Shown here: positions 2,503 to 25,260 of the stretch, piece after piece
How positions within the stretch are numbered: the first letter of the stretch is position 1
How the letters are laid out: every line of letters begins with the position of its first letter
From: a virus
Lineage: Duplodnaviria > Heunggongvirae > Uroviricota > Caudoviricetes
IMG/VR virus record: IMGVR_UViG_2703718780_000026
Length of the DNA: 33,331 nucleotides
Direction: 5' to 3' (one strand)
Program-made: the position numbers and the translations under genes
The notes under the pieces: generated by a model
What the model saw: only the letters and a program-made list of their open reading frames with translations
Told to the model about the DNA's origin: nothing
Database searches by the model: none

Positions 2503-2727
2503 ATGCATACAGTTTCTGAAAATCAGTGCGGTAAATTCGCATTACTGCTGCAACAGGCCAGAACCGAAGCACAGGCCGACGCTGCGACGCGCTTTTCTTC
2601 TCATCTTGACGCCATGATTCGCCACATCACAAAGGCGGAGTTATCCCGCGTGGAGATAGTCGAGCTGCTCAGTCAGGAGTCGGAAAAATTTCACAACATC
2701 GGATTGTCTCGCGGGGAGGTGCTTTGA
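2503..2727 (+). CDS. Hypothetical early protein
   Basis: 74-aa ORF in the B-A interval of the early operon; stop overlaps the next start (TGATG). Confidence 0.55.
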
Positions 2728-3029
2728 TGTCCTGTTCTCATTCAGTTGTATTACTGAACAATGCCTTAAAAATCGCCGTTATGAAAAATGGCGATTTGTC
2801 TCTTATTCAACTTGGTCTTGATAAAGAAAAACGCGAAATAACTGAATCTGTTATCGCGATTTATCAGAGTGAATTAAACCTCCTGTCTGATGTGGTCAAT
2901 TTACTTGTTAAACGCGCTGTATTTCACAAGCAAATTTCCTCCGTGGATGAACTGACGAAATTAACGACAGAAATCGCCAGCTATTGCGCTGATGAATTTA
3001 AAAAACTGAACGACAAAAGGAACTGGTAA
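2724..3029 (+). CDS. Hypothetical early protein
   Basis: 101-aa ORF, translationally coupled to its neighbours. Confidence 0.55.
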
Positions 3030-3253
3030 TGCCGGACAACGTAGATTTTATTCAGGAACAACAGGCTGAATTACTGGAGCGCCAGATTAACGCGGCAAGG
3101 GTAAAACATTGTGGTGCTTCTGCGCTGGTTTGCGAAGAGTGTGACGCGCCAATACCTGCTGCCCGTCGTGCAGCTTATCCGTCAGCCACGCGTTGTGTTT
3201 CCTGCCAGTCAGTCTTTGAAGCAAAAAACAAGCATTACCGGAGAATGGCATGA
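3029..3253 (+). CDS. TraR/DksA-like C4 zinc-finger protein
   Basis: 74 aa with CxxC-N17-CxxC (CEECDAPIPAARRAAYPSATRCVSCQ). P2 has a TraR-like small ORF at this position (from memory). Confidence 0.65.
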   Translation: MPDNVDFIQEQQAELLERQINAARVKHCGASALVCEECDAPIPAARRAAYPSATRCVSCQSVFEAKNKHYRRMA

Positions 3254-3525
3254 GTATTCGTATCGAAATTGGCGAACGTTATGTCGTTACCAGTGACAGC
3301 TTTCAGTTTATTCTCCACGAGAAAAAGAGAGCGGAAAGCGGTAAAAACGCCGGTCAGGAATGGCTGGCGGTGGTTGGTTATTACCCGAAATTAAGCCAGC
3401 TCGTTTCCGGCCTGATGCATCACGATATTCTGACCGGAAGCGCAAAGTCTTTTGCTGATTTAAACGCGCAGGTTGAGCAACTCAGCAAGCGTTGTTCAGA
3501 GGCTTTTGGCTCATATGGCCGTTAA
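3250..3525 (+). CDS. Hypothetical early protein
   Basis: 91-aa ORF immediately upstream of A and overlapping its start. Confidence 0.55.
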   Translation: MSIRIEIGERYVVTSDSFQFILHEKKRAESGKNAGQEWLAVVGYYPKLSQLVSGLMHHDILTGSAKSFADLNAQVEQLSKRCSEAFGSYGR

Positions 3526-5800
3526 AGCCTCCGGGCGTTTTGTCCCTCCGTCAGCATTTGCCGCAGGCACCGGTAAGGCGTTTACCGGTGCTTATGCATG
3601 GAACGCGCCACGCGAGGCTGTCGGGCGCGAAAGACCCCTTACACGTGACGAGATGCGTCAGGTGCAAGGTGTTTTATCCACGATTAACCGCCTGCCTTAC
3701 TTTTTGCGCTCGCTGTTTACTTCACGCTATGACTACATCCGGCGCAATAAAAGCCCGGTGCACGGGTTTTATTTCCTTACATCCACTTTTCAGCGTCGTT
3801 TATGGCCGCGCATTGAGCGTGTGAATCAGCGCCATGAAATGAACACCGACGCGTCGTTGCTGTTTCTGGCAGAGCGTGACCATTATGCGCGCCTGCCTGG
3901 AATGAATGACAAGGAGCTGAAAAAGTTTGCCGCCCGTATCTCATCGCAGCTTTTCATGATGTATGAGGAACTCTGCGATGCATGGGTTGATGCTCATGGC
4001 GAAAAAGAATCGCTGTTTACGGATGAGGCGCAGACTCACCTGTATGGTCATGTTGCTGGCGCTGCACGTGCTTTCAATATTTCCCCGCTCTACTGGAAAA
4101 AATACCGTAAAGGGCAGATGACCACGAGGCAGGCATATTCTGCCATTGCCCGCCTGTTTAACGATGAGTGGTGGACTCATCAGCTTAAAGGCCAGCGTAT
4201 GCGCTGGCATGAGGCGTTACTGATTGCTGTCGGGGAGGTCAATAAAGACCGTTCTCCTTATGCCAGTAAACATGCCATTCGTGATGTGCGTGCGCGCCGC
4301 CAGGCAAATCTGGAATTTCTTAAATCGTGTGACCTTGAAAACAAGGAAACCGGCGAGCGCATCGACCTTATCAGTAAGGTGATGGGCAGTATTTCTAATC
4401 CAGAAATTCGCCGGATGGAGCTGATGAACACCATCGCCGGTATTGAGCGTTACGCCGCCGCAGAGGGTGATGTGGGGATGTTTATCACGCTGACCGCGCC
4501 GTCAAAGTATCACCCGACACGTCAGGTCAGAAAAGGCGAAAGTAAAACCGTCCAGCTAAATCACGGCTGGAACGATGAGGCATTTAATCCAAAGGATGCG
4601 CAGCGTTATCTCTGCCGTATCTGGAGCCTGATGCGCACGGCATTCAAGGATAATGATTTACAGGCCTACGGTTTGCGTGTTGTTGAACCACACCACGACG
4701 GAACGCCGCACTGGCATATGATGCTTTTTTGTAATCCACGCCAGCGTAACCAGATTATTGAAATCATGCGTCGCTATGCGCTCAAAGAGGATGGCGACGA
4801 AAGAGGAGCCGCGCGAAACCGTTTTCAGGCAAAACACCTTAACCGGGGCGGTGCTGCGGGATATATCGCGAAATACATCTCAAAAAACATCGACGGCTAT
4901 GCACTGGATGGTCAGCTCGATAATGATACCGGTAGGCTGCTGAAAGACACTGCAGCGGCTGTTACCGCATGGGCGTCTACGTGGCGCATTCCGCAATTTA
5001 AAACGGTTGGCCTGCCGACAATGGGGGCTTACCGTGAGCTACGCAAATTGCCTCGCGGCGTCAGCATTGCTGATGAGTTTGACGAACGCGTCGAGGCTGC
5101 ACGCGCCGCCGCAGACAGTGGTGATTTTGCGCTGTATATCAGCGCGCAGGGCGGGGCAAATGTCCCGCGCGATTGTCAGACTGTCAGGGTCGCCCGTAGC
5201 CCGTCGGATGACGTTAACGAGTACGAGGAAGAAGTCGAGAGAGTGGTCGGCATTTACGCGCCGCATCTCGGCGCGCGTCATATTCATATCACCAGAACGA
5301 CGGACTGGCGCATTGTGCCGAAAGTTCCGGTCGTTGAGCCTTTGACTTTAAAAAGCGGCATCGCCGCGCCTCGGAGTCCTGTCAATAACTGTGGAAAGCT
5401 CACCGGTAGTGATGCTTCGTTACCGGCTCCCACACCTTCTGAGCACGCTGCAGCAGTGCTAAATCTGGTTGATGACGGTGTTATCGAATGGAATGACCCA
5501 GAGGTCGTGAGGGCGCTCAGGGGAGCATTAAAACACGGTCTGAAAACACCAAATCGTCAGCAAAGAAACGGAAGTCCGTTAAAAACACATGAAATTGAAC
5601 CGTCGGCCAGACTGACCCGGTCGGAACGAATGCAAATCACCCGTATCCGCGTTGACCTTGCTCAGAACGGTATCAGGCCTCAGCGATGGGAGCTTGAGGC
5701 GCTGGCGCGTGGCGCGACCGTAAATTATGACGGGAAAAAATTCACGTATCCGGTCGCTGATGAGTGGCCGGGATTCTCAACAGTAATGGAGTGGACATAA
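3515..5800 (+). CDS. A: Replication initiation endonuclease A (rolling-circle, HUH-type)
   Basis: ATG at 3515 gives 761 aa, the same as P2 gpA. HUH-like motif PHWHMMLF and paired active-site tyrosines YIAKYISK, as in the phiX174 A / P2 A family. Confidence 0.9.
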   Translation: MAVKASGRFVPPSAFAAGTGKAFTGAYAWNAPREAVGRERPLTRDEMRQVQGVLSTINRLPYFLRSLFTSRYDYIRRNKSPVHGFYFLTSTFQRRLWPRIERVNQRHEMNTDASLLFLAERDHYARLPGMNDKELKKFAARISSQLFMMYEELCDAWVDAHGEKESLFTDEAQTHLYGHVAGAARAFNISPLYWKKYRKGQMTTRQAYSAIARLFNDEWWTHQLKGQRMRWHEALLIAVGEVNKDRSPYASKHAIRDVRARRQANLEFLKSCDLENKETGERIDLISKVMGSISNPEIRRMELMNTIAGIERYAAAEGDVGMFITLTAPSKYHPTRQVRKGESKTVQLNHGWNDEAFNPKDAQRYLCRIWSLMRTAFKDNDLQAYGLRVVEPHHDGTPHWHMMLFCNPRQRNQIIEIMRRYALKEDGDERGAARNRFQAKHLNRGGAAGYIAKYISKNIDGYALDGQLDNDTGRLLKDTAAAVTAWASTWRIPQFKTVGLPTMGAYRELRKLPRGVSIADEFDERVEAARAAADSGDFALYISAQGGANVPRDCQTVRVARSPSDDVNEYEEEVERVVGIYAPHLGARHIHITRTTDWRIVPKVPVVEPLTLKSGIAAPRSPVNNCGKLTGSDASLPAPTPSEHAAAVLNLVDDGVIEWNDPEVVRALRGALKHGLKTPNRQQRNGSPLKTHEIEPSARLTRSERMQITRIRVDLAQNGIRPQRWELEALARGATVNYDGKKFTYPVADEWPGFSTVMEWT

Positions 5801-6252
5801 TGGCAAAAATTCACGAGGTAAAGCTGCACGCAAAATATTTCGACCTTGTACTGGAAGGAAAGAAACGCGCAGAGTTTCGGAAAAATGACCGTAATTATGA
5901 GCGCGGGGACACGTTGATTTTGCATGAATGGGTGCAGGGTGTGTTTACGGGGCGCAAGGTTGAAGCCCGGATAACAGATGTTACTGACCTGTCAGACTGG
6001 CTGGAAGATTATGTCTTGCTAAGTATTGAGCTGCTTAATACGGGCGCATATAAGATTGTGAACTGGAAAGAACTTAGTGAACGTGGTTTGGTATTCAGAA
6101 TTAATCATGAAATTATGCATCAGCTTGGCCTTGCTGTTATGTATGAACCAGAGACAGGGATGTCTGGTGGTGCAATGGTTGCCACGGATGGGATATGGAA
6201 TTATTCAGATGAACAGATGGAGCATGCAAAGCAAAACGGGTGGCTTGGATAA
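5800..6252 (+). CDS. ASCH/DUF3850-like protein (tentative)
   Basis: ATG at 5800 overlaps the A stop (TAATG). N-terminus MAKIHEVKLHAKYFDLVLEGKKRAEFRKNDRNYERGDTLILHEW resembles the DUF3850/ASCH consensus as I remember it; needs an HMM check. Confidence 0.5.
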   Translation: MAKIHEVKLHAKYFDLVLEGKKRAEFRKNDRNYERGDTLILHEWVQGVFTGRKVEARITDVTDLSDWLEDYVLLSIELLNTGAYKIVNWKELSERGLVFRINHEIMHQLGLAVMYEPETGMSGGAMVATDGIWNYSDEQMEHAKQNGWLG

Positions 6253-6458
6253 TGCACAGAATACCAGGCGAGATACCGCACCATAAAACTAAAAATATCA
6301 AGCTGATGGCCATTGTTCAGCGTTTACAGCGGATTATGGTCAACGAAAATCTGACGCCCGATGAGCTGGTCGGGTGTGCCGAAATAGTCCGGGATAATTA
6401 CGGGCGGTTTAATCATATCGGTCAATCAAGAGTTACGCCACCACCACGCAGACGATAG
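6252..6458 (+). CDS. Small hypothetical protein
   Basis: ATG at 6252 overlaps the upstream stop (TAATG), suggesting translational coupling. 68 aa, no motif recognised. Confidence 0.4.
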   Translation: MHRIPGEIPHHKTKNIKLMAIVQRLQRIMVNENLTPDELVGCAEIVRDNYGRFNHIGQSRVTPPPRRR

Positions 6459-6763
6459 AGAACGCCGCCAGTCGTGAAACTTGTTTTCAGGGCTGGCGGG
6501 GTTGAACAACGAGCGAAGCGAGGCGTTAGTTATGTAAAGTTAAAGTCATTTAAAACAGTACATTAGTGGAAAGGATGTTGAGAGTATTCGGTTACGAGAG
6601 GGAATGGATGTATTTACAGAAATTGTTGGATTAATTGTAGTAAAGCTAGGCTAGGATAAGGCCTTAGGGCTGGATGTGGGGAGCATTCTTGTTGTTTGCT
6701 AAAACGCTCGAGATTTTTGAAGGATACAGTTATACTCTGTCGGAGGATGAATCGGAGACTAAA

Positions 6764-7801
6764 ATGGCGGTAAAAGTTGTTGATCTTTTTTGTGGTGCTG
6801 GCGGGCTTACTCATGGCTTAAAGCAAGCCGGATTAGATGTAGTCGCTGGTATTGATATAGAGAGTGCATGCCGGGTTGCTTATGAAATTAATAACAGTGC
6901 GCTTTTTATTGAAAAAGATATTTCTCTGGTGACCAAAGACGAGCTTAACGATCTTTTTGAAGGTGCGCAGGTAAGGGTGTTGGCTGGTTGTGCGCCGTGC
7001 CAACCTTTTTCAAGGTATACGCAAGGGCGCGATAAGAAAAATGATAAAAAGTGGCCTCTTCTTTATGAATTTGAACGTTTAATTCGAGGGGTTAATCCAG
7101 AGATCGTTACAATGGAAAATGTACCTGATGTAACGAAGCATTCTGTTTATAGTGACTTCTATAATAGTTTAGAGGCATTGGGTTATCATGTCTGGGCCGG
7201 AAAGGTTGAATGTGTAGATTATGGTGTTCCGCAAAATAGAGTTAGGCATGTATTATTGGCATCTAAATTTGCGCCGCTTTCATTTGTAAAACCAAAAGTA
7301 GAAAAGGCGGTGACGGTAAAAGAATGCATTGGCGGACTTCCTCCATTAAAGGCTGGTCAAACGGATCCTGTTGATCCTTTACATAAAGCAAGTAAATTAA
7401 GTGATATAAATCTAAAACGTATTGCTTGCTCTAAACCAGGAGGGACATGGCGAGACTGGCCAGTAGAGTTGATTGCATCATGCCACATAAAGAAAAGTGG
7501 GCAAGGTTATGCTAGTGTATATGGACGTATGGATTGGGATAAACCAAGTCCTACAATTACTACGCTATGTTATGGTTTTGGAAATGGCAGATTTGGTCAT
7601 CCCGAGCAAAATCGTGCAATTTCTCTGAGAGAGGCTGCATTGTTACAAACGTTTCCAAAGGATTACGTTTTTACTGCACCCAATGAGAAAGTATCTATAA
7701 AGAATGTTGGTAGGATGATTGGTAATGCTGTACCGGTAAAACTAGGTGAGGTTATAGGTGAGTCAATTATAACTCACCTAAAAGAGCACAATATAGTTTA
7801 A
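6764..7801 (+). CDS. DNA (cytosine-5) methyltransferase
   Basis: ATG at 6764 with GGAG RBS 6 nt upstream. C5-MTase motifs read in order: I DLFCGAGG, IV PCQPFS, VI ENV, VIII QNRVR, X GNAV. 345 aa. Confidence 0.9.
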   Translation: MAVKVVDLFCGAGGLTHGLKQAGLDVVAGIDIESACRVAYEINNSALFIEKDISLVTKDELNDLFEGAQVRVLAGCAPCQPFSRYTQGRDKKNDKKWPLLYEFERLIRGVNPEIVTMENVPDVTKHSVYSDFYNSLEALGYHVWAGKVECVDYGVPQNRVRHVLLASKFAPLSFVKPKVEKAVTVKECIGGLPPLKAGQTDPVDPLHKASKLSDINLKRIACSKPGGTWRDWPVELIASCHIKKSGQGYASVYGRMDWDKPSPTITTLCYGFGNGRFGHPEQNRAISLREAALLQTFPKDYVFTAPNEKVSIKNVGRMIGNAVPVKLGEVIGESIITHLKEHNIV

Positions 7802-8529
7802 GCCTGTAGTCTTGATGATCGTATGTATAAGCGATCATCAAGGTATTTTTGTATGTTTTCTAGTATTTCTTCTAGGTAATGGAAAACTTCATTTTTAAGA
7901 AGTTCAAGGTTGTCAATAGACGTTTCTTGACCCTTGTTTAAAAAGGATTCTGAACCATGCGCCAATGCATTTCTTGCTTTTTTTATGTTTACTAAATTTC
8001 CACCATTATGAGTTTTTGAACGATCTGTTTGAGAGGAAAAACCATAGATACTAGCAACATCCCTAATTTTCTGTGCGTCAACATTTCCAGAAAATAGGGG
8101 GTTTTTATCTGCTTGAACTTGTTTTTTGTGTTCCTCTAGCCATTTTTTTAGAACTAGTTTTGCTATATCACCTTGTGAAAAATCCATGTCACTCACCATA
8201 TGATGGTCTAATTTTTTTAAGGCAAGCTTTGTTAAGCTTTCGCAAATTTTATCGACACAAAGATCATCACACGAATTAAGTTCATTATGTATATCTTCAA
8301 TAGCATTAGATATAGTGGCTTCAATTAAGTTATATAATATAATAAACGCATTGGCTTTTAGGATATGCGTCATTTCGATATCAATTTCGCGGTGTTTACA
8401 TTCGCCTGCTATGCGATCTTTGTACGAGAATGTTGGTCTCTCATCAATAATGAATTTAACAAAATCAAAATATTTTTCTATATCTTCTTTTCTTTCAGAA
8501 AATAAAATTTTGCTGTTCATGATGACCAC
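7798..8529 (-). CDS. Hypothetical protein with C-terminal HEPN-like R-N-x3-H motif
   Basis: 243 aa from a GTG at 8529 (RBS GAGGAG 10 nt upstream), or 240 aa from the ATG at 8520. KKARNALAHG matches the HEPN Rx4-6H signature. Its stop codon overlaps the MTase stop (7798-7801 shared, convergent). Confidence 0.6.
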   Translation of the reverse strand: MVIMNSKILFSERKEDIEKYFDFVKFIIDERPTFSYKDRIAGECKHREIDIEMTHILKANAFIILYNLIEATISNAIEDIHNELNSCDDLCVDKICESLTKLALKKLDHHMVSDMDFSQGDIAKLVLKKWLEEHKKQVQADKNPLFSGNVDAQKIRDVASIYGFSSQTDRSKTHNGGNLVNIKKARNALAHGSESFLNKGQETSIDNLELLKNEVFHYLEEILENIQKYLDDRLYIRSSRLQA

Positions 8530-8535
8530 GGATAG

Positions 8536-9660
8536 TTACTCCTCACTATCATCTAGAACAGTATCTTCGGTCTGCACACCTAAAAGTTTGTCTCTTACAT
8601 ATTCAATACGTGCTTTTACTTTAGGTTTTGAATTTGATGCATCAGATCTTGTATGTTTAATAAACTCTTCTGAGTTTAACCATTCCTCTACCGGTGTTGG
8701 TATTATGTTAGAGTCAGTTTTTAAGGCCAAAGTGGAACCGACAGCTAACGCTTCAAAGCGAATTCTTGGTACAGTGTTTGCCGTTGCATTCTTTCTGAAA
8801 CCATAGGGGAAATATGTTTTGACAAATTCACACATATCTTGAAATTGTGCAGTTAGTTTTTCTTCTTGCTCAGGACTAAATGACTCATTGCGTTGGTCAA
8901 GATATTGGGTTAAGAAAGTATCAACACTTTTTTCAAAGTTAAGATAGTTATCACAATAGGCAAAATATCTAAGAACCAATTCTGGATATTCTCCACGACT
9001 GATCCTAGCATCGTTTAGAGGGCATATTTCCCTAAACAATGGAAACTCTGATAGTCTATTAACAACATCAAGAAAAGGCCCATCATTACTGCCCTGTCGT
9101 TGCTCCATTGTCGTGAGTTTTATTCCACCTGTATTCAATCGATCGAAAATCTCCCTTCTTGCTTCTTCATCACATAATTCAGTGAGTTCAATCATTCGAA
9201 TAGTTTTTCTATCGAATCTAAGCTTACGTGCAGGTGTGAAGTCAGAGTATTTGAATCCGTTGGCTGAAGTTAGCTTTTTTAATCCAGTAAGGGTAAATTT
9301 ATCATTTAGGAAATGATAAAGTGTTCTAATCCTCTGGCTACCATCAACGATTTCCAATCGCCCATCGTCATTTCCGATATCGGCGACAAATACATATGGG
9401 ATAGGAATATTTAGCAAAAGAGATTCAATGAATCTTGATTTTTGAACATTGCTCCAAACAAATTCCCTTTGATAATCAGGTATGTATAGTTCTGCTTGGT
9501 CGGTTTCTAATCCTTTCTGAAATTTGTCAACAATGACACTTACAGGAAACTCTCTGATTTGGTGATCCGTTATTTTTTGCATGGATTTGATCTGGTTATC
9601 CAGGTCAACTTTATCTTCTTCTGTGATCACTTGTTCAGGTTGTCTTGGGACTCTTGCCAT
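8536..9660 (-). CDS. DUF262 (ParB/Srx-like) domain protein, standalone (no DUF1524/HNH domain)
   Basis: ATG at 9660 with AGGAG RBS; 374 aa. Motifs IPDYQREFVW and DGSQRIRTL (the DGQQR-type signature) plus C-terminal FDRLNTGGIKLT. First gene of a two-gene operon, 6-nt gap to the downstream gene. Confidence 0.75.
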   Translation of the reverse strand: MARVPRQPEQVITEEDKVDLDNQIKSMQKITDHQIREFPVSVIVDKFQKGLETDQAELYIPDYQREFVWSNVQKSRFIESLLLNIPIPYVFVADIGNDDGRLEIVDGSQRIRTLYHFLNDKFTLTGLKKLTSANGFKYSDFTPARKLRFDRKTIRMIELTELCDEEARREIFDRLNTGGIKLTTMEQRQGSNDGPFLDVVNRLSEFPLFREICPLNDARISRGEYPELVLRYFAYCDNYLNFEKSVDTFLTQYLDQRNESFSPEQEEKLTAQFQDMCEFVKTYFPYGFRKNATANTVPRIRFEALAVGSTLALKTDSNIIPTPVEEWLNSEEFIKHTRSDASNSKPKVKARIEYVRDKLLGVQTEDTVLDDSEE

Positions 9661-9681
9661 TTGTTTTCTCCTTATGCTTAT

Positions 9682-9706
9682 TTGCAATAAGTTGCATTTG
9701 TTTGCA
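9682..9706 (-). promoter_or_regulatory. Three TTGCA motifs at 10-bp phasing in the leader of the DUF262 operon (candidate operator)
   Basis: TTGCA at 9682-9686, 9692-9696 and 9702-9706 on the + strand (TGCAA x3 on the coding strand), between the predicted promoter and the start codon. Confidence 0.3.
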
Positions 9707-9723
9707 TGCGTAGTTTTATACTG

Positions 9724-9752
9724 ATTTAATCCCACAAGTCCTTTACATGCAA
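9724..9752 (-). promoter_or_regulatory. Candidate sigma70 promoter for the DUF262/HEPN-like operon (TTGCAT, 17 nt, TTAAAT on the minus strand)
   Basis: Reverse complement of 9747-9752 is TTGCAT; reverse complement of 9724-9729 is TTAAAT; spacer 17 nt. About 60 nt upstream of the ATG at 9660. Confidence 0.35.
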
Positions 9753-9802
9753 GGGTTAGAGGCTTAAATGCACCTGCATTAAAACCGCCCCACGAAGCGG
9801 GC

Positions 9803-9821
9803 GGGCGAGGCGGGGAAAGCA
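9803..9821. other. cos cohesive-end site (P2/P4-type 19-mer GGCGAGGCGGGGAAAGCAC)
   Basis: The 19-mer matches the P2/P4 cohesive-end sequence as I recall it, and the following sequence (CTGCGCGCTG.CGGTGGTGCTGATT...TTTTTTCAGCGTCT) resembles the P4/P2 left end. Located between the cargo and Q, as expected for an integrated P2. Confidence 0.7.
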
Positions 9822-9964
9822 CTGCGCGCTGGCGGTGGTGCTGATTTTATTTTTTCAGCGTCTGAGCGCGTCGTGATAGCGTTTAGATTGTGCGCCGGGG
9901 CGTTGGTTTGTCTGCGGGCTGTTTTGCGCGGTGGTGAGCGTGTGAGGGCGTGATGACGGGGTGT

Positions 9965-9991: not shown

Positions 9992-11026
9992 TCAGCCGTT
10001 GTCAGTGTCCAGTGAGTAGTTTTTAAAGCGGATGACCTCCTGACCGAGCCAGCCGTTTATCTCGCGGATCCTGTCCTGTAACGGGATAAGCTCATTGCGG
10101 ACAAAGACCTTTGCCACTTTCTCAATATCACCCAGCGACCCGACGTTCTCCGGCTTGCCACCCATCAACTGAAAGGGGATGCGGTGTGCGTCCAGCAGGT
10201 CAGCGGCGCTGGCTTTTTTGATATTAAAAAAATCGTCCTTCGTCGCCACTTCACTGAGCGGGATAATTTTAATGCCGTCGGCTTTCCCCTGCGGGGCATA
10301 GAGAAACAGATTTTTAAAGTTATTGCGGCCTTTTGACTTAACCATGTTTTCGCGGAGCATTTCGATATCGTTGCGATCCTGCACGGCATCGGTGACGTAC
10401 ATGATGTATCCGGCATGTGCGCCATTTTCGTAATACTTGCGGCGGAACAGTGTGGCCGACTCATTCAGCCAGGCAGAGTTAAGGGCGCTGAGATATTCCG
10501 GCAGGCCGTACAGCTCCTGATTAATATCCGGCTCCAGCAGGTGAAACACGGAACCGGGCGCGAAGGCTGTCGGCTCGTTGAAGGACGGCACCCACCAGTA
10601 AACATCCTCTTCCACACCACGGCGGGTATATTTTGCCGGTGAGGTTTCCAGTCTGATGACCTTACCGGTGGTGCTGTAACGCTTTTCCAGAAACGCATTA
10701 CCGAACACCAGAAAATCCAGCACAAAGCGGCTGAAATCCTGCTGGGAAAGCCACGGATGCGGGATAAATGTCGAGGCCAGAATATTACGTTTGACGTAAA
10801 TCGGGGAGCTGTGATGCACGGCAGCACGCAGGCTTTTTGCCAGACCGGTAAAGCTGACCGGTGGCTCATACCATCTGCCGTTACTGATGCACTCGACGTA
10901 ATCCAGAATGTCACGGCGGTCGAGTACCGGCACCGGCTCACCAAAGGTGAATGCCTCCATTTTCGGGGCGCTGGCGGTCATTTTTTTTGCCGCAGGTTGC
11001 GGTGTTTTCCCTTTTTTCTTGCTCAT
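9992..11026 (-). CDS. Q: Portal protein (P2 gpQ-like)
   Basis: 344 aa, the same as P2 Q. Adjacent to cos and transcribed toward it; start overlaps the P stop. Confidence 0.88.
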   Translation of the reverse strand: MSKKKGKTPQPAAKKMTASAPKMEAFTFGEPVPVLDRRDILDYVECISNGRWYEPPVSFTGLAKSLRAAVHHSSPIYVKRNILASTFIPHPWLSQQDFSRFVLDFLVFGNAFLEKRYSTTGKVIRLETSPAKYTRRGVEEDVYWWVPSFNEPTAFAPGSVFHLLEPDINQELYGLPEYLSALNSAWLNESATLFRRKYYENGAHAGYIMYVTDAVQDRNDIEMLRENMVKSKGRNNFKNLFLYAPQGKADGIKIIPLSEVATKDDFFNIKKASAADLLDAHRIPFQLMGGKPENVGSLGDIEKVAKVFVRNELIPLQDRIREINGWLGQEVIRFKNYSLDTDNG

Positions 11027-23917: not shown

Positions 23918-24445
23918 ATGCAGCATTTGATAAATATAACGGCAGGTAATCCAAAAACGGTTGAACAATATCAATTGACAAAGGACTTTGATGTTGTCTG
24001 GTTTTTTTCAGAAGATGGTAAGAACTGGTACGAAGAACAAAAGTATTTTGCTGATGACACGATAAAAATAGCGTACGACAAAGATAATATTATCCGCTAT
24101 GTGGAAAAGGATGTGACAGCTATCAGACCAGATGGATTAAGTGTTGTTGAAGTGCCGGATATTACTGCTAATCGACGGGCGGACATTTCAGGGAACTGGA
24201 TGTTTAAGGATGGTACAGTGATTAAACGAATTTATACGGCAGAGGAATTGCAGCAGCAGGCAGAAAATCGGAAAGCCAGACTTCTTGCAGATGCTGAATC
24301 CGTGATTTTGCCGCTGGAGCGCGCGGTCAGACTGAACATGGCAACAGATGAGGAGCGTAGCCGACTGGAAGCATGGGAACGCTACAGCGTTCTGGTCAGT
24401 CGTGTGGATCCTGCAAATCCTGAATGGCCGGAAATGCCGCAATAA
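23918..24445 (+). CDS. G: Tail fibre assembly chaperone G
   Basis: 175 aa, the same as P2 G; immediately follows H. Confidence 0.8.
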
Positions 24446-24666: not shown

Positions 24667-25260
24667 ATGTTTACTAAGCGACGATTAAAAAATATTAACT
24701 GGGAGGCAAGTTCAGTGATTCTTGCTATGGTTCTCTTTGTTGGAAATATATTTTATACAAATCATCGTGATGATATAAGCATGGAGGCTGAGAGGGACAG
24801 TATCAGAACAATGTTTGCATATGAAATCGCTAATAACCATCGCGCTCTCACTTTTCTTGATAAAACGAGACATATTGGCTTTGACGAAAATTCGGAGCAT
24901 TTTGTTGGCGAGCCTTTTGCCATTAATGTCAAATCATTAGGGGGGCCTCGCTTACAGATTGCATTAAACCAGACTGATAAAGTGTTTAAATCCTACTTCA
25001 GCGAATTAAGTAAGCTTGATAAAGAGGATGTTACTCTTCTTATGGACTATTACCATGAGCAAAGCATCCTGCTGGAGCGTGTAAAATCTACGTTACAGAA
25101 GATGAAAAGTGGTAATGATATTAAAGTTGATATTGATGGTTACTTATTAGAAGAACACTTCATGAATGAGCTTAATCTTTCTAATATTTTGCTTAAACGC
25201 TATAGCCATTTGTTGTCACAATACGCTAAAGAACATAAAACAAAAGATTTACATAATTGA
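24667..25260 (+). CDS. Hypothetical membrane-anchored protein (cargo at the Z/fun position)
   Basis: 197 aa; ATG with AAGG RBS; N-terminal hydrophobic helix SSVILAMVLFVGNIFY; strongly AT-rich codon usage unlike the flanking phage genes; sits alone between G and FI. Confidence 0.6.
   Translation: MFTKRRLKNINWEASSVILAMVLFVGNIFYTNHRDDISMEAERDSIRTMFAYEIANNHRALTFLDKTRHIGFDENSEHFVGEPFAINVKSLGGPRLQIALNQTDKVFKSYFSELSKLDKEDVTLLMDYYHEQSILLERVKSTLQKMKSGNDIKVDIDGYLLEEHFMNELNLSNILLKRYSHLLSQYAKEHKTKDLHN

Follow-up and report, generated by a model that had tools for sequence, protein, structure and literature searches.

What does a mostly helical protein of 243 residues do when it is encoded in a P2-like prophage between a DNA methylase gene and a DUF262 gene? 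The original prediction, based on an R-N-x3-H signature in the C-terminal part, was that of a HEPN RNase working with a DUF262 partner.

A three-gene cassette at a P2 hotspot

The window, that is the whole stretch of 33,331 nucleotides that was analysed, is a P2-like prophage. Replication gene A occupies positions 3473-5800 and portal gene Q positions 9992-11026 on the minus strand, with the terminase and capsid genes beyond. A low-GC cassette is located between the replication-gene side and gene Q. Its features are the following.

6532-9760: low-GC cargo cassette at P2 hotspot #1, about 3.2 kb, holding just three genes plus flanks; approximate at its right end
6764-7801, plus strand: C5 cytosine DNA methyltransferase, 345 aa (Pfam DNA_methylase, 3e-54)
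7798-8529, minus strand: HEPN protein gene, MAE_28990 family; 243 aa from GTG 8529, 240 aa from ATG 8520
7809-7844, plus strand: putative terminator-like hairpin after the methylase stop codon, with a 14-bp stem then a T-run (consensus scan only)
8536-9660, minus strand: DUF262 / ParB-like NTPase with a helical C-terminal domain, 374 aa, directly upstream of the HEPN gene
8539-8544, minus strand: GAGGAG Shine-Dalgarno sequence of the HEPN gene, read from the sequence, within the last DUF262 codons

Homology to P2 stops at position 6531; in other P2-like prophages, matches to the query are confined to its flanks. The GC content is 32% in the HEPN gene, 37% in the DUF262 gene and 40% in the methylase gene, as compared to 53-57% in the backbone. 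The A-Q interval is a defence hotspot of P2 and the site of old and tin; its characterised occupants are defence systems (PMC9519451, PMC9122126). The three-gene cassette is horizontally acquired cargo of defence type in a P2-like prophage. Domain searches found no PD-(D/E)XK, HNH, GIY-YIG or PLD domain in the cassette, and neither a nucleotidyltransferase (MNT) nor any other known antitoxin was found in the neighbouring ORFs.

The cassette is rare in E. coli. The variant of the window occurs in 4 of 5,426 complete genomes. A second variant, with about 76-78% identity at the DNA level and about 61% for the HEPN protein, occurs in 3 of the same 5,426. All E. coli carriers, whichever the variant, have the cassette at the same P2 hotspot, and in all of them the RefSeq labels are DUF262, MAE_28990-family HEPN-like nuclease and DNA cytosine methyltransferase. 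The second variant is also carried by an isolated phage, Peduovirus P24B2, possibly without an intact adjacent methylase gene, as this gene shows an apparent frameshift.

The original prediction placed the 243-residue protein at 7798-8529 and left the strand unstated. The ORF is indeed present, and it lies on the minus strand; the plus strand of the same interval contains many stop codons and no open frame. The identical RefSeq protein, WP_062865361.1, has 240 residues and starts at ATG 8520, as does the RefSeq annotation of the gene in near-identical E. coli prophages. The GAGGAG sequence is 9 nt before GTG 8529 and 18 nt before ATG 8520. The spacing to the GTG makes the 243-residue form plausible. 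The location of this Shine-Dalgarno sequence inside the 3’ end of the DUF262 gene suggests translational coupling. Residues of the HEPN protein are numbered hereafter from the ATG at 8520.

The methylase contains all its catalytic motifs (FCGAGG, PCQ, ENV and QNRVR), the PCQ cysteine being C79. It is similar to a DrmMII-type PADLOC model, and its matches in the PDB are generic C5 methylases. The methylase and HEPN genes are convergent, with stop codons that share 4 bp (7798-7801). The hairpin at 7809-7844 lies within the HEPN coding sequence, in its 3’ end, which is poorly conserved.

As anticipated, a DUF262 partner gene adjoins the HEPN gene upstream, on the same strand (8536-9660). The three motifs of the DUF262 NTPase domain are present in its product, whose DGSQR motif contains Q109 and R110. 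The model of the protein shows two domains, and its nearest structural neighbours are BrxU and SspE. Among PADLOC profiles, NsnA is matched at 2.7e-55 (positions 26-377 of 385) and, with a weaker score, PD-T4-2_A at 6.6e-34 (positions 56-356 of 363). With the DUF262 protein as query, PDB sequences yielded no meaningful profile match. In the characterised DUF262 proteins GmrSD, BrxU and SspE, DUF262 is the NTPase and sensor and a DUF1524 HNH domain cuts; more generally, the literature describes DUF262 as sensing DNA modification in an NTP-dependent manner and activating the nuclease attached to it. BrxU acts on m5C DNA in vitro. The DUF1524 HNH nuclease (EHxxP) is absent from the DUF262 protein and from the cassette.

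The HEPN protein and its active-site signature

The C-terminal segment quoted in support of the prediction, NLVNIKKARNALAHGSESF, is found in the translation with its R-N-A-L-A-H motif, at residues 183-188 (186-191 when counted from GTG 8529). The generic R-x4-6-H pattern carries no information here: stop-free stretches of the window contain 1.7 copies per 240 aa, and 69% of shuffles of the protein have it. R-N-x3-H occurs in 2.3% of shuffles of the HEPN protein and only once in the window. The motif by itself is insufficient for a HEPN claim. The claim holds because of a profile match, the conservation of the motif and a structure model, taken together.

The search with HEPN-family models from Pfam matched PF18737 (HEPN_MAE_28990) with a score of 71.8 bits, above the gathering cut-off of 26.8 (E=1.2e-19). 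Residues 10-235 are aligned with profile positions 9-211 of 211, which corresponds to a full-length match. Neither PADLOC nor NCBIfam has a model that matches the protein, and the only PHROGs match is phrog_3846, annotated as ‘unknown function’. Three conserved patches stand out in the sequence.

7957-7974, minus strand: codons of R183-N-A-L-A-H188, the Rx4H catalytic signature, in which R is followed by a polar residue (translation checked)
8077-8088, minus strand: codons of G145-N-V-D148, another near-invariant patch (SGNVDA), which falls in the insert that separates helix 2 from helix 3
8320-8334, minus strand: codons of Y63-N-L-I-E67 in helix 2, with Y63, N64 and E67 invariant

HEPN active sites are defined by an Rx4-6H motif, with a polar N, D or H residue after the arginine, and by an acidic residue in helix 2, typically within Ex3[KR] (PMC3710099). 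Among the family representatives, the arginine and the histidine are kept in 151/151 and the asparagine in 148/151. E67 in helix 2 is also found in 151/151. The residues that follow it are A-T-I-S, without the K/R of the typical Ex3[KR]. E67 is a candidate for the conserved helix-2 acidic residue. In the SGNVDA patch, G145 is present in 151/151 and N146 and D148 in 143/151 each. This conservation indicates that the active-site signature is under strong purifying selection. The protein is a genuine HEPN-family nuclease-like protein with an intact signature.

The AlphaFold2 model of the protein (pLDDT 90.4) agrees with the expected mostly helical content and adds a small beta-hairpin at residues 30-45. 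Helix 1 spans residues 2-27, helix 2 residues 48-83 and helix 3 residues 167-188; after a loop, helix 4, which is kinked, spans residues 193-228. The predicted core is thus the four-helix, up-and-down arrangement expected of HEPN, with an insert (residues 84-166) that separates helix 2 from helix 3. The motif ends helix 3, R183 to H188 being at its C-terminal end and running into the loop to helix 4. The best structural matches to this core are the HepT-type SO_3166 (5yep), 8xdj and 7ae2, with only 7-12% identity in the alignments. A Foldseek search with the model returned no HEPN match, and the HEPN family alignment, searched as a profile against PDB sequences, gave nothing meaningful. Overall, PF18737, the R and H conservation and the AlphaFold2 topology support the initial identification of the protein as HEPN.

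Conservation of the module and its known relatives

The family and its operon have been described before. Anantharaman, Makarova, Burroughs, Koonin and Aravind (2013) defined the MAE_28990 family and listed it in an operon with ParB-like and DNA methylase genes (their Table 1), and RefSeq names the identical protein MAE_28990 family HEPN-like nuclease. The protein of the window is a full-length, above-threshold member of that family (PF18737), with the same conserved Rx4H and N after R. The published operon context is exactly its DUF262 and methylase setting, and there is no difference in family definition. The description of the family to date is computational only. We found in the literature no published activity assay for MAE_28990 proteins (about 1,800 clusters) and no experimental study of the DUF262-HEPN-C5-methylase trio. 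The present analysis adds little to the known family, annotation and operon architecture, and its value as a discovery is small. It does show that PADLOC v2 has no model for the MAE_28990 HEPN protein, which makes such cassettes invisible to that tool.

The gene neighbourhood was examined at 79 loci fetched on contigs from one genome per species, with a search profile built on a 16-sequence subset of the 27-sequence family alignment. These loci belong to Enterobacterales, Cyanobacteria, Bacteroidota, Planctomycetota, Campylobacterota, Nitrospirota and other groups. In 79/79 loci, the gene immediately upstream of HEPN encodes a DUF262 protein. The two genes overlap or are separated by 30 nt at most in 77 of the 79, with a median of -1 nt. 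The DUF262 protein is the obligate partner of HEPN and its presumed DNA sensor. A C5 methylase orthologue is adjacent in 57 of the 73 assessable loci, mostly with 50-81% identity to the methylase of the window. It is upstream and co-directional in 42 of the 57, and convergent downstream, as in the window, in 15. The methylase is absent despite sufficient room in 16 loci; six contigs were too short to judge. Metagenomic contigs show the same order, methylase-DUF262-HEPN. In the ten methylase-less loci examined, the DUF262-HEPN pair lies among ordinary genes, for instance those of aconitase, RF3, LepA and QueG.

Across the 52 complete trios, median identity to the proteins of the window is 53% for the methylase, 46% for the DUF262 protein and 33% for the HEPN protein, and the target-recognition region of the methylase is as conserved as its catalytic core. 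This order of conservation, together with the conserved target-recognition region, suggests a single fixed methylation motif with a co-inherited reader and a faster-evolving effector.

The cassette has a validated defence relative in E. coli, PD-T4-2 from strain ECOR65 (QOYX01000002:338334-339873), composed of a DUF262 protein and a small HEPN protein (Vassallo et al. 2022). PD-T4-2 is an accessory-genome system. It protects against T4, both natively and in K-12, and generally against other T-even phages too. It shares with the cassette the two-gene core and its order, DUF262 then HEPN. PD-T4-2 has two CDS in about 1.5 kb and no methylase, whereas the window has a C5 methylase in the cassette. 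Its HEPN subunit is also apparently shorter, as HHpred aligned it to about residue 163, versus 240 aa here. The authors’ HHpred analysis of PD-T4-2B gave PF18735 at 97.8% and PF18737 at 96.9%. Our comparison rests on the PADLOC profiles and on that HHpred table. No PADLOC model, PD-T4-2_B included, matches the HEPN protein of the window at E<=1, and PD-T4-2_B matches marginally only 2 of the 27 family members (best E 0.0069). PD-T4-2A is not among the 120 DUF262 homologues listed. We did not assign the cassette to PD-T4-2: its DUF262 protein matches the A model, its HEPN protein does not match the B model, and a methylase is present.

PD-lambda-5, a prophage-borne system with broad protection that required an mrr/mcr-deficient host, combines ParB/HEPN and a methylase and was described as a compacted RM+Abi (Vassallo et al. 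2022). The same three functions are found in the window: a ParB-superfamily domain, a HEPN-like domain and a DNA methylase. The PD-lambda-5 version differs by its ParBc domain, which is not DUF262, by a part with only weak similarity to HEPN on the same fused chain, and by a methylase of the Dam-type D12 N6-adenine class instead of C5. None of the PADLOC PD-Lambda-5 models matches the HEPN or DUF262 protein. With different domain families, and separate genes here, membership was rejected, and PD-lambda-5 is an analogue, not a homologue.

GmrSD, BrxU and SspE are single chains with DUF262 and DUF1524, and have only the DUF262 domain in common with the window, where the effector is a separate HEPN protein. 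A GmrSD-type Type IV enzyme was rejected since the DUF1524 HNH domain is absent. SspE does offer an example of a DUF262 sensor that cooperates with a module modifying self DNA; its modification is phosphorothioate whereas that of the window is 5mC. The DUF262 protein is also NsnA-like along its full length, with a ParB-DUF262 domain and a helical, ParBDB-type C-terminal domain, as in Menshen (NsnABC). Menshen itself was rejected. The HEPN gene follows the NsnA-like gene, there is no NsnC inPIN-effector, and no gene for an NsnB-type ABC-ATPase was found within the cargo of about 3.2 kb.

HepT of the HepT/MNT pairs shows the same Rx4H catalytic logic as the protein of the window and the HEPN fold predicted for it. 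The protein of the window has about 100 residues more, accounted for by its N-terminal hairpin and by the insert that separates helix 2 from helix 3. No MNT antitoxin gene adjoins it, and a HEPN-MNT toxin-antitoxin system was rejected. A classical Type II R-M system was also rejected: the methylase has all its motifs but no restriction endonuclease fold is found in the cassette.

Possible modes of action

With moderate confidence, we propose that the MAE_28990 HEPN protein is the effector of a DUF262-HEPN two-gene core, usually accompanied by a C5 methylase, and that licensed RNA cleavage stops the phage. The C5 methylase would mark resident DNA at a fixed motif, being most plausibly the source of the self mark, a part played for SspE by the Ssp modification genes. 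The DUF262 protein, through its helical DNA-binding domain and NTP binding and hydrolysis, would read the status of the DNA, as GmrSD, BrxU and SspE do, and would then license the HEPN subunit for RNA cleavage. HEPN domains that carry the motif are metal-independent RNases and typically dimeric, according to the HEPN literature. The subunit would probably be a dimer with a composite R/H site. Cleavage of RNA would lead to a stop of phage (or cell) gene expression or to abortive infection.

These steps have different origins. We infer an anti-phage function of the cassette from its architectural homology to PD-T4-2 and from its location at the hotspot. RNA as the HEPN substrate would follow from the HEPN literature, by analogy. 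Methylation sensing by the DUF262 protein, its direction included, is also presumed by analogy. Since 16 loci, and possibly phage P24B2, keep DUF262-HEPN without an intact adjacent methylase, sensing may go in either direction. Methylases encoded near ParB-DUF262 systems may mean that DUF262 targets non-modified genomes (Li et al. 2025, PMC12065111).

More tentatively, the cassette could be an R-M-like system in which the ‘restriction’ arm is an RNase. The DUF262 protein would read the C5 methylation written by the methylase, and the wrong methylation state would license HEPN. A mark-and-reader pair with a fast-evolving effector fits the order of conservation among the three proteins and the conserved target-recognition region of the methylase.

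The reading published in 2013, a compact R-M plus Abi, is unlikely. According to it, the ParB-like DUF262 protein would be a DNase acting on unmethylated DNA, the methylase would protect self and the HEPN RNase would provide a second-line suicide or anti-transcript arm. The linkage of the methylase in 57 of 73 loci agrees with such an arrangement, as does the term compacted RM+Abi that Vassallo et al. use for the analogous PD-lambda-5. Against it, the known DUF262 proteins sense, and cleavage is performed by a DUF1524 HNH domain that is absent here. Moreover, a self-restricting DNase would poorly tolerate the situation of the 16 loci, and possibly of one phage, without an intact adjacent methylase.

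The same 16 loci, with the pair amid housekeeping genes, would be readily explained if DUF262-HEPN detected modified phage DNA (hmC or glc-hmC) in a Type IV-like manner, the methylase being a separate passenger, for instance a phage anti-restriction gene. PD-T4-2 protects against T4 and generally T-even phages without a methylase, and DUF262 domains are known to sense modified DNA, BrxU acting in vitro on m5C DNA. We nevertheless hold this explanation to be quite unlikely. An orthologous methylase is found in 57 of 73 loci, in distant phyla and in two orientations, with a conserved target-recognition region, which makes a passenger role improbable. A sensor of 5-substituted cytosine placed beside a 5mC writer would also risk self-activation, unless the modifications are discriminated.

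A very improbable alternative is an addiction or TA-like module stabilising the prophage. Loss of the cassette would dilute the methylation or the partner and free the HEPN toxin, defence being secondary or absent. In the cassette, neither MNT nor another known antitoxin accompanies HEPN, the pair also occurs in chromosomal, non-mobile contexts between housekeeping genes, and the characterised occupants of the hotspot are defence systems. Finally, a chance Rx4H in an unrelated helical protein, to which the frequency of the generic motif in shuffles (69%) and the lack of a HEPN match in Foldseek could point, is effectively refuted by the PF18737 match, the low-identity structural matches and the 151/151 conservation of R and H.

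The proposal of a HEPN effector licensed by a DUF262 reader raises a mechanistic question specific to the trio: how a DNA mark, read by a ParB-like NTPase, controls a protein whose fold is known only from RNases. If the methylation-reading version were true, abortive infection at the RNA level would be controlled by the methylation status of DNA. A compact and convenient model for that question is the E. coli cassette carried by P2, of about 3.2 kb.

Conserved patch and start of the DUF262 protein

The C-terminal helical domain of the DUF262 protein has no annotation of its own and contains a nearly invariant patch.

8617-8655, minus strand: H-T-R-S-D-A-S-N-S-x-P-K-V, DUF262 protein residues 336-348

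Within this patch, T337, S339, D340, S342, N343, S344 and P346 are invariant in the 26 sequences compared. Residues 336-348 could form a surface reading DNA or its modification. Mechanical ORF calling places the start of the DUF262 gene at a GTG at 9822 (428 aa). RefSeq and the homologues use an ATG at 9660, giving a protein of 374 aa. The extra stretch (9661-9822, minus strand) contains a hairpin.

9804-9785: terminator-like hairpin, within the upstream extension of the DUF262 ORF

The 428-aa long form is probably an over-extension.

Convergent 3' ends of the methylase and HEPN genes

The C5 methylase and HEPN genes converge, and their stop codons overlap by 4 bp (region 7798-7844). The terminator-like hairpin of the methylase lies inside the 3' end of the HEPN gene, in codons that are poorly conserved.

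7809-7844: terminator-like hairpin of the methylase, 14-bp stem, within the final 15 HEPN codons

Given this overlap and the position of the hairpin, the methylase and HEPN arms might interfere with each other's transcription or be coupled in antisense.

Cargo positions and neighbouring genes

Two genes common to many P2-like phages are located between gene A and the cargo.

5764-6252, plus strand: ASCH/DUF3850 and DUF7415 protein, phrog_1812
6240-6458, plus strand: 72-aa ORF, phrog_11386

Both are absent from the variant-2 prophages, which carry the second E. coli form of the cassette and in which the methylase directly follows gene A. In the Peduovirus P2 record NC_070904.1, the same hotspot is occupied by a distinct cassette (5502-8540) whose layout matches that of the window's cassette. 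There, a C5 methylase annotated as BspRI-like is convergent with two minus-strand genes encoding 341 and 357 aa, neither of which has a Pfam match. It may represent a further two-gene system linked to a methylase.

The Z/fun site, which is the window's second position for P2 cargo, is a low-GC island (about 41-45% GC) with a lone ORF.

23918-24445: tail-fibre assembly gene, on one side of the Z/fun site
24667-25260, plus strand: lone ORF of the island, 197 aa
25444-26781: sheath gene, on the other side

The 197-aa ORF has no match in Pfam or PADLOC; its sole match, full-length, is PHROG 3829 (annotated "unknown function"). This uncharacterised gene is a candidate for a defence or cargo role.

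Methylase frameshift in phage P24B2

The isolated phage Peduovirus P24B2 (NC_049387.1) carries a variant-2 cassette whose C5 methylase gene (2568-3612) shows one frameshift near residue 226. Apart from this frameshift, the methylase is 100% identical to the copy in the variant-2 prophage of strain 2023CK-01509, and the adjacent DUF262 and HEPN genes are intact. The frameshift may equally be a sequencing error. If it is real, the DUF262-HEPN pair tolerates loss of the methylase.
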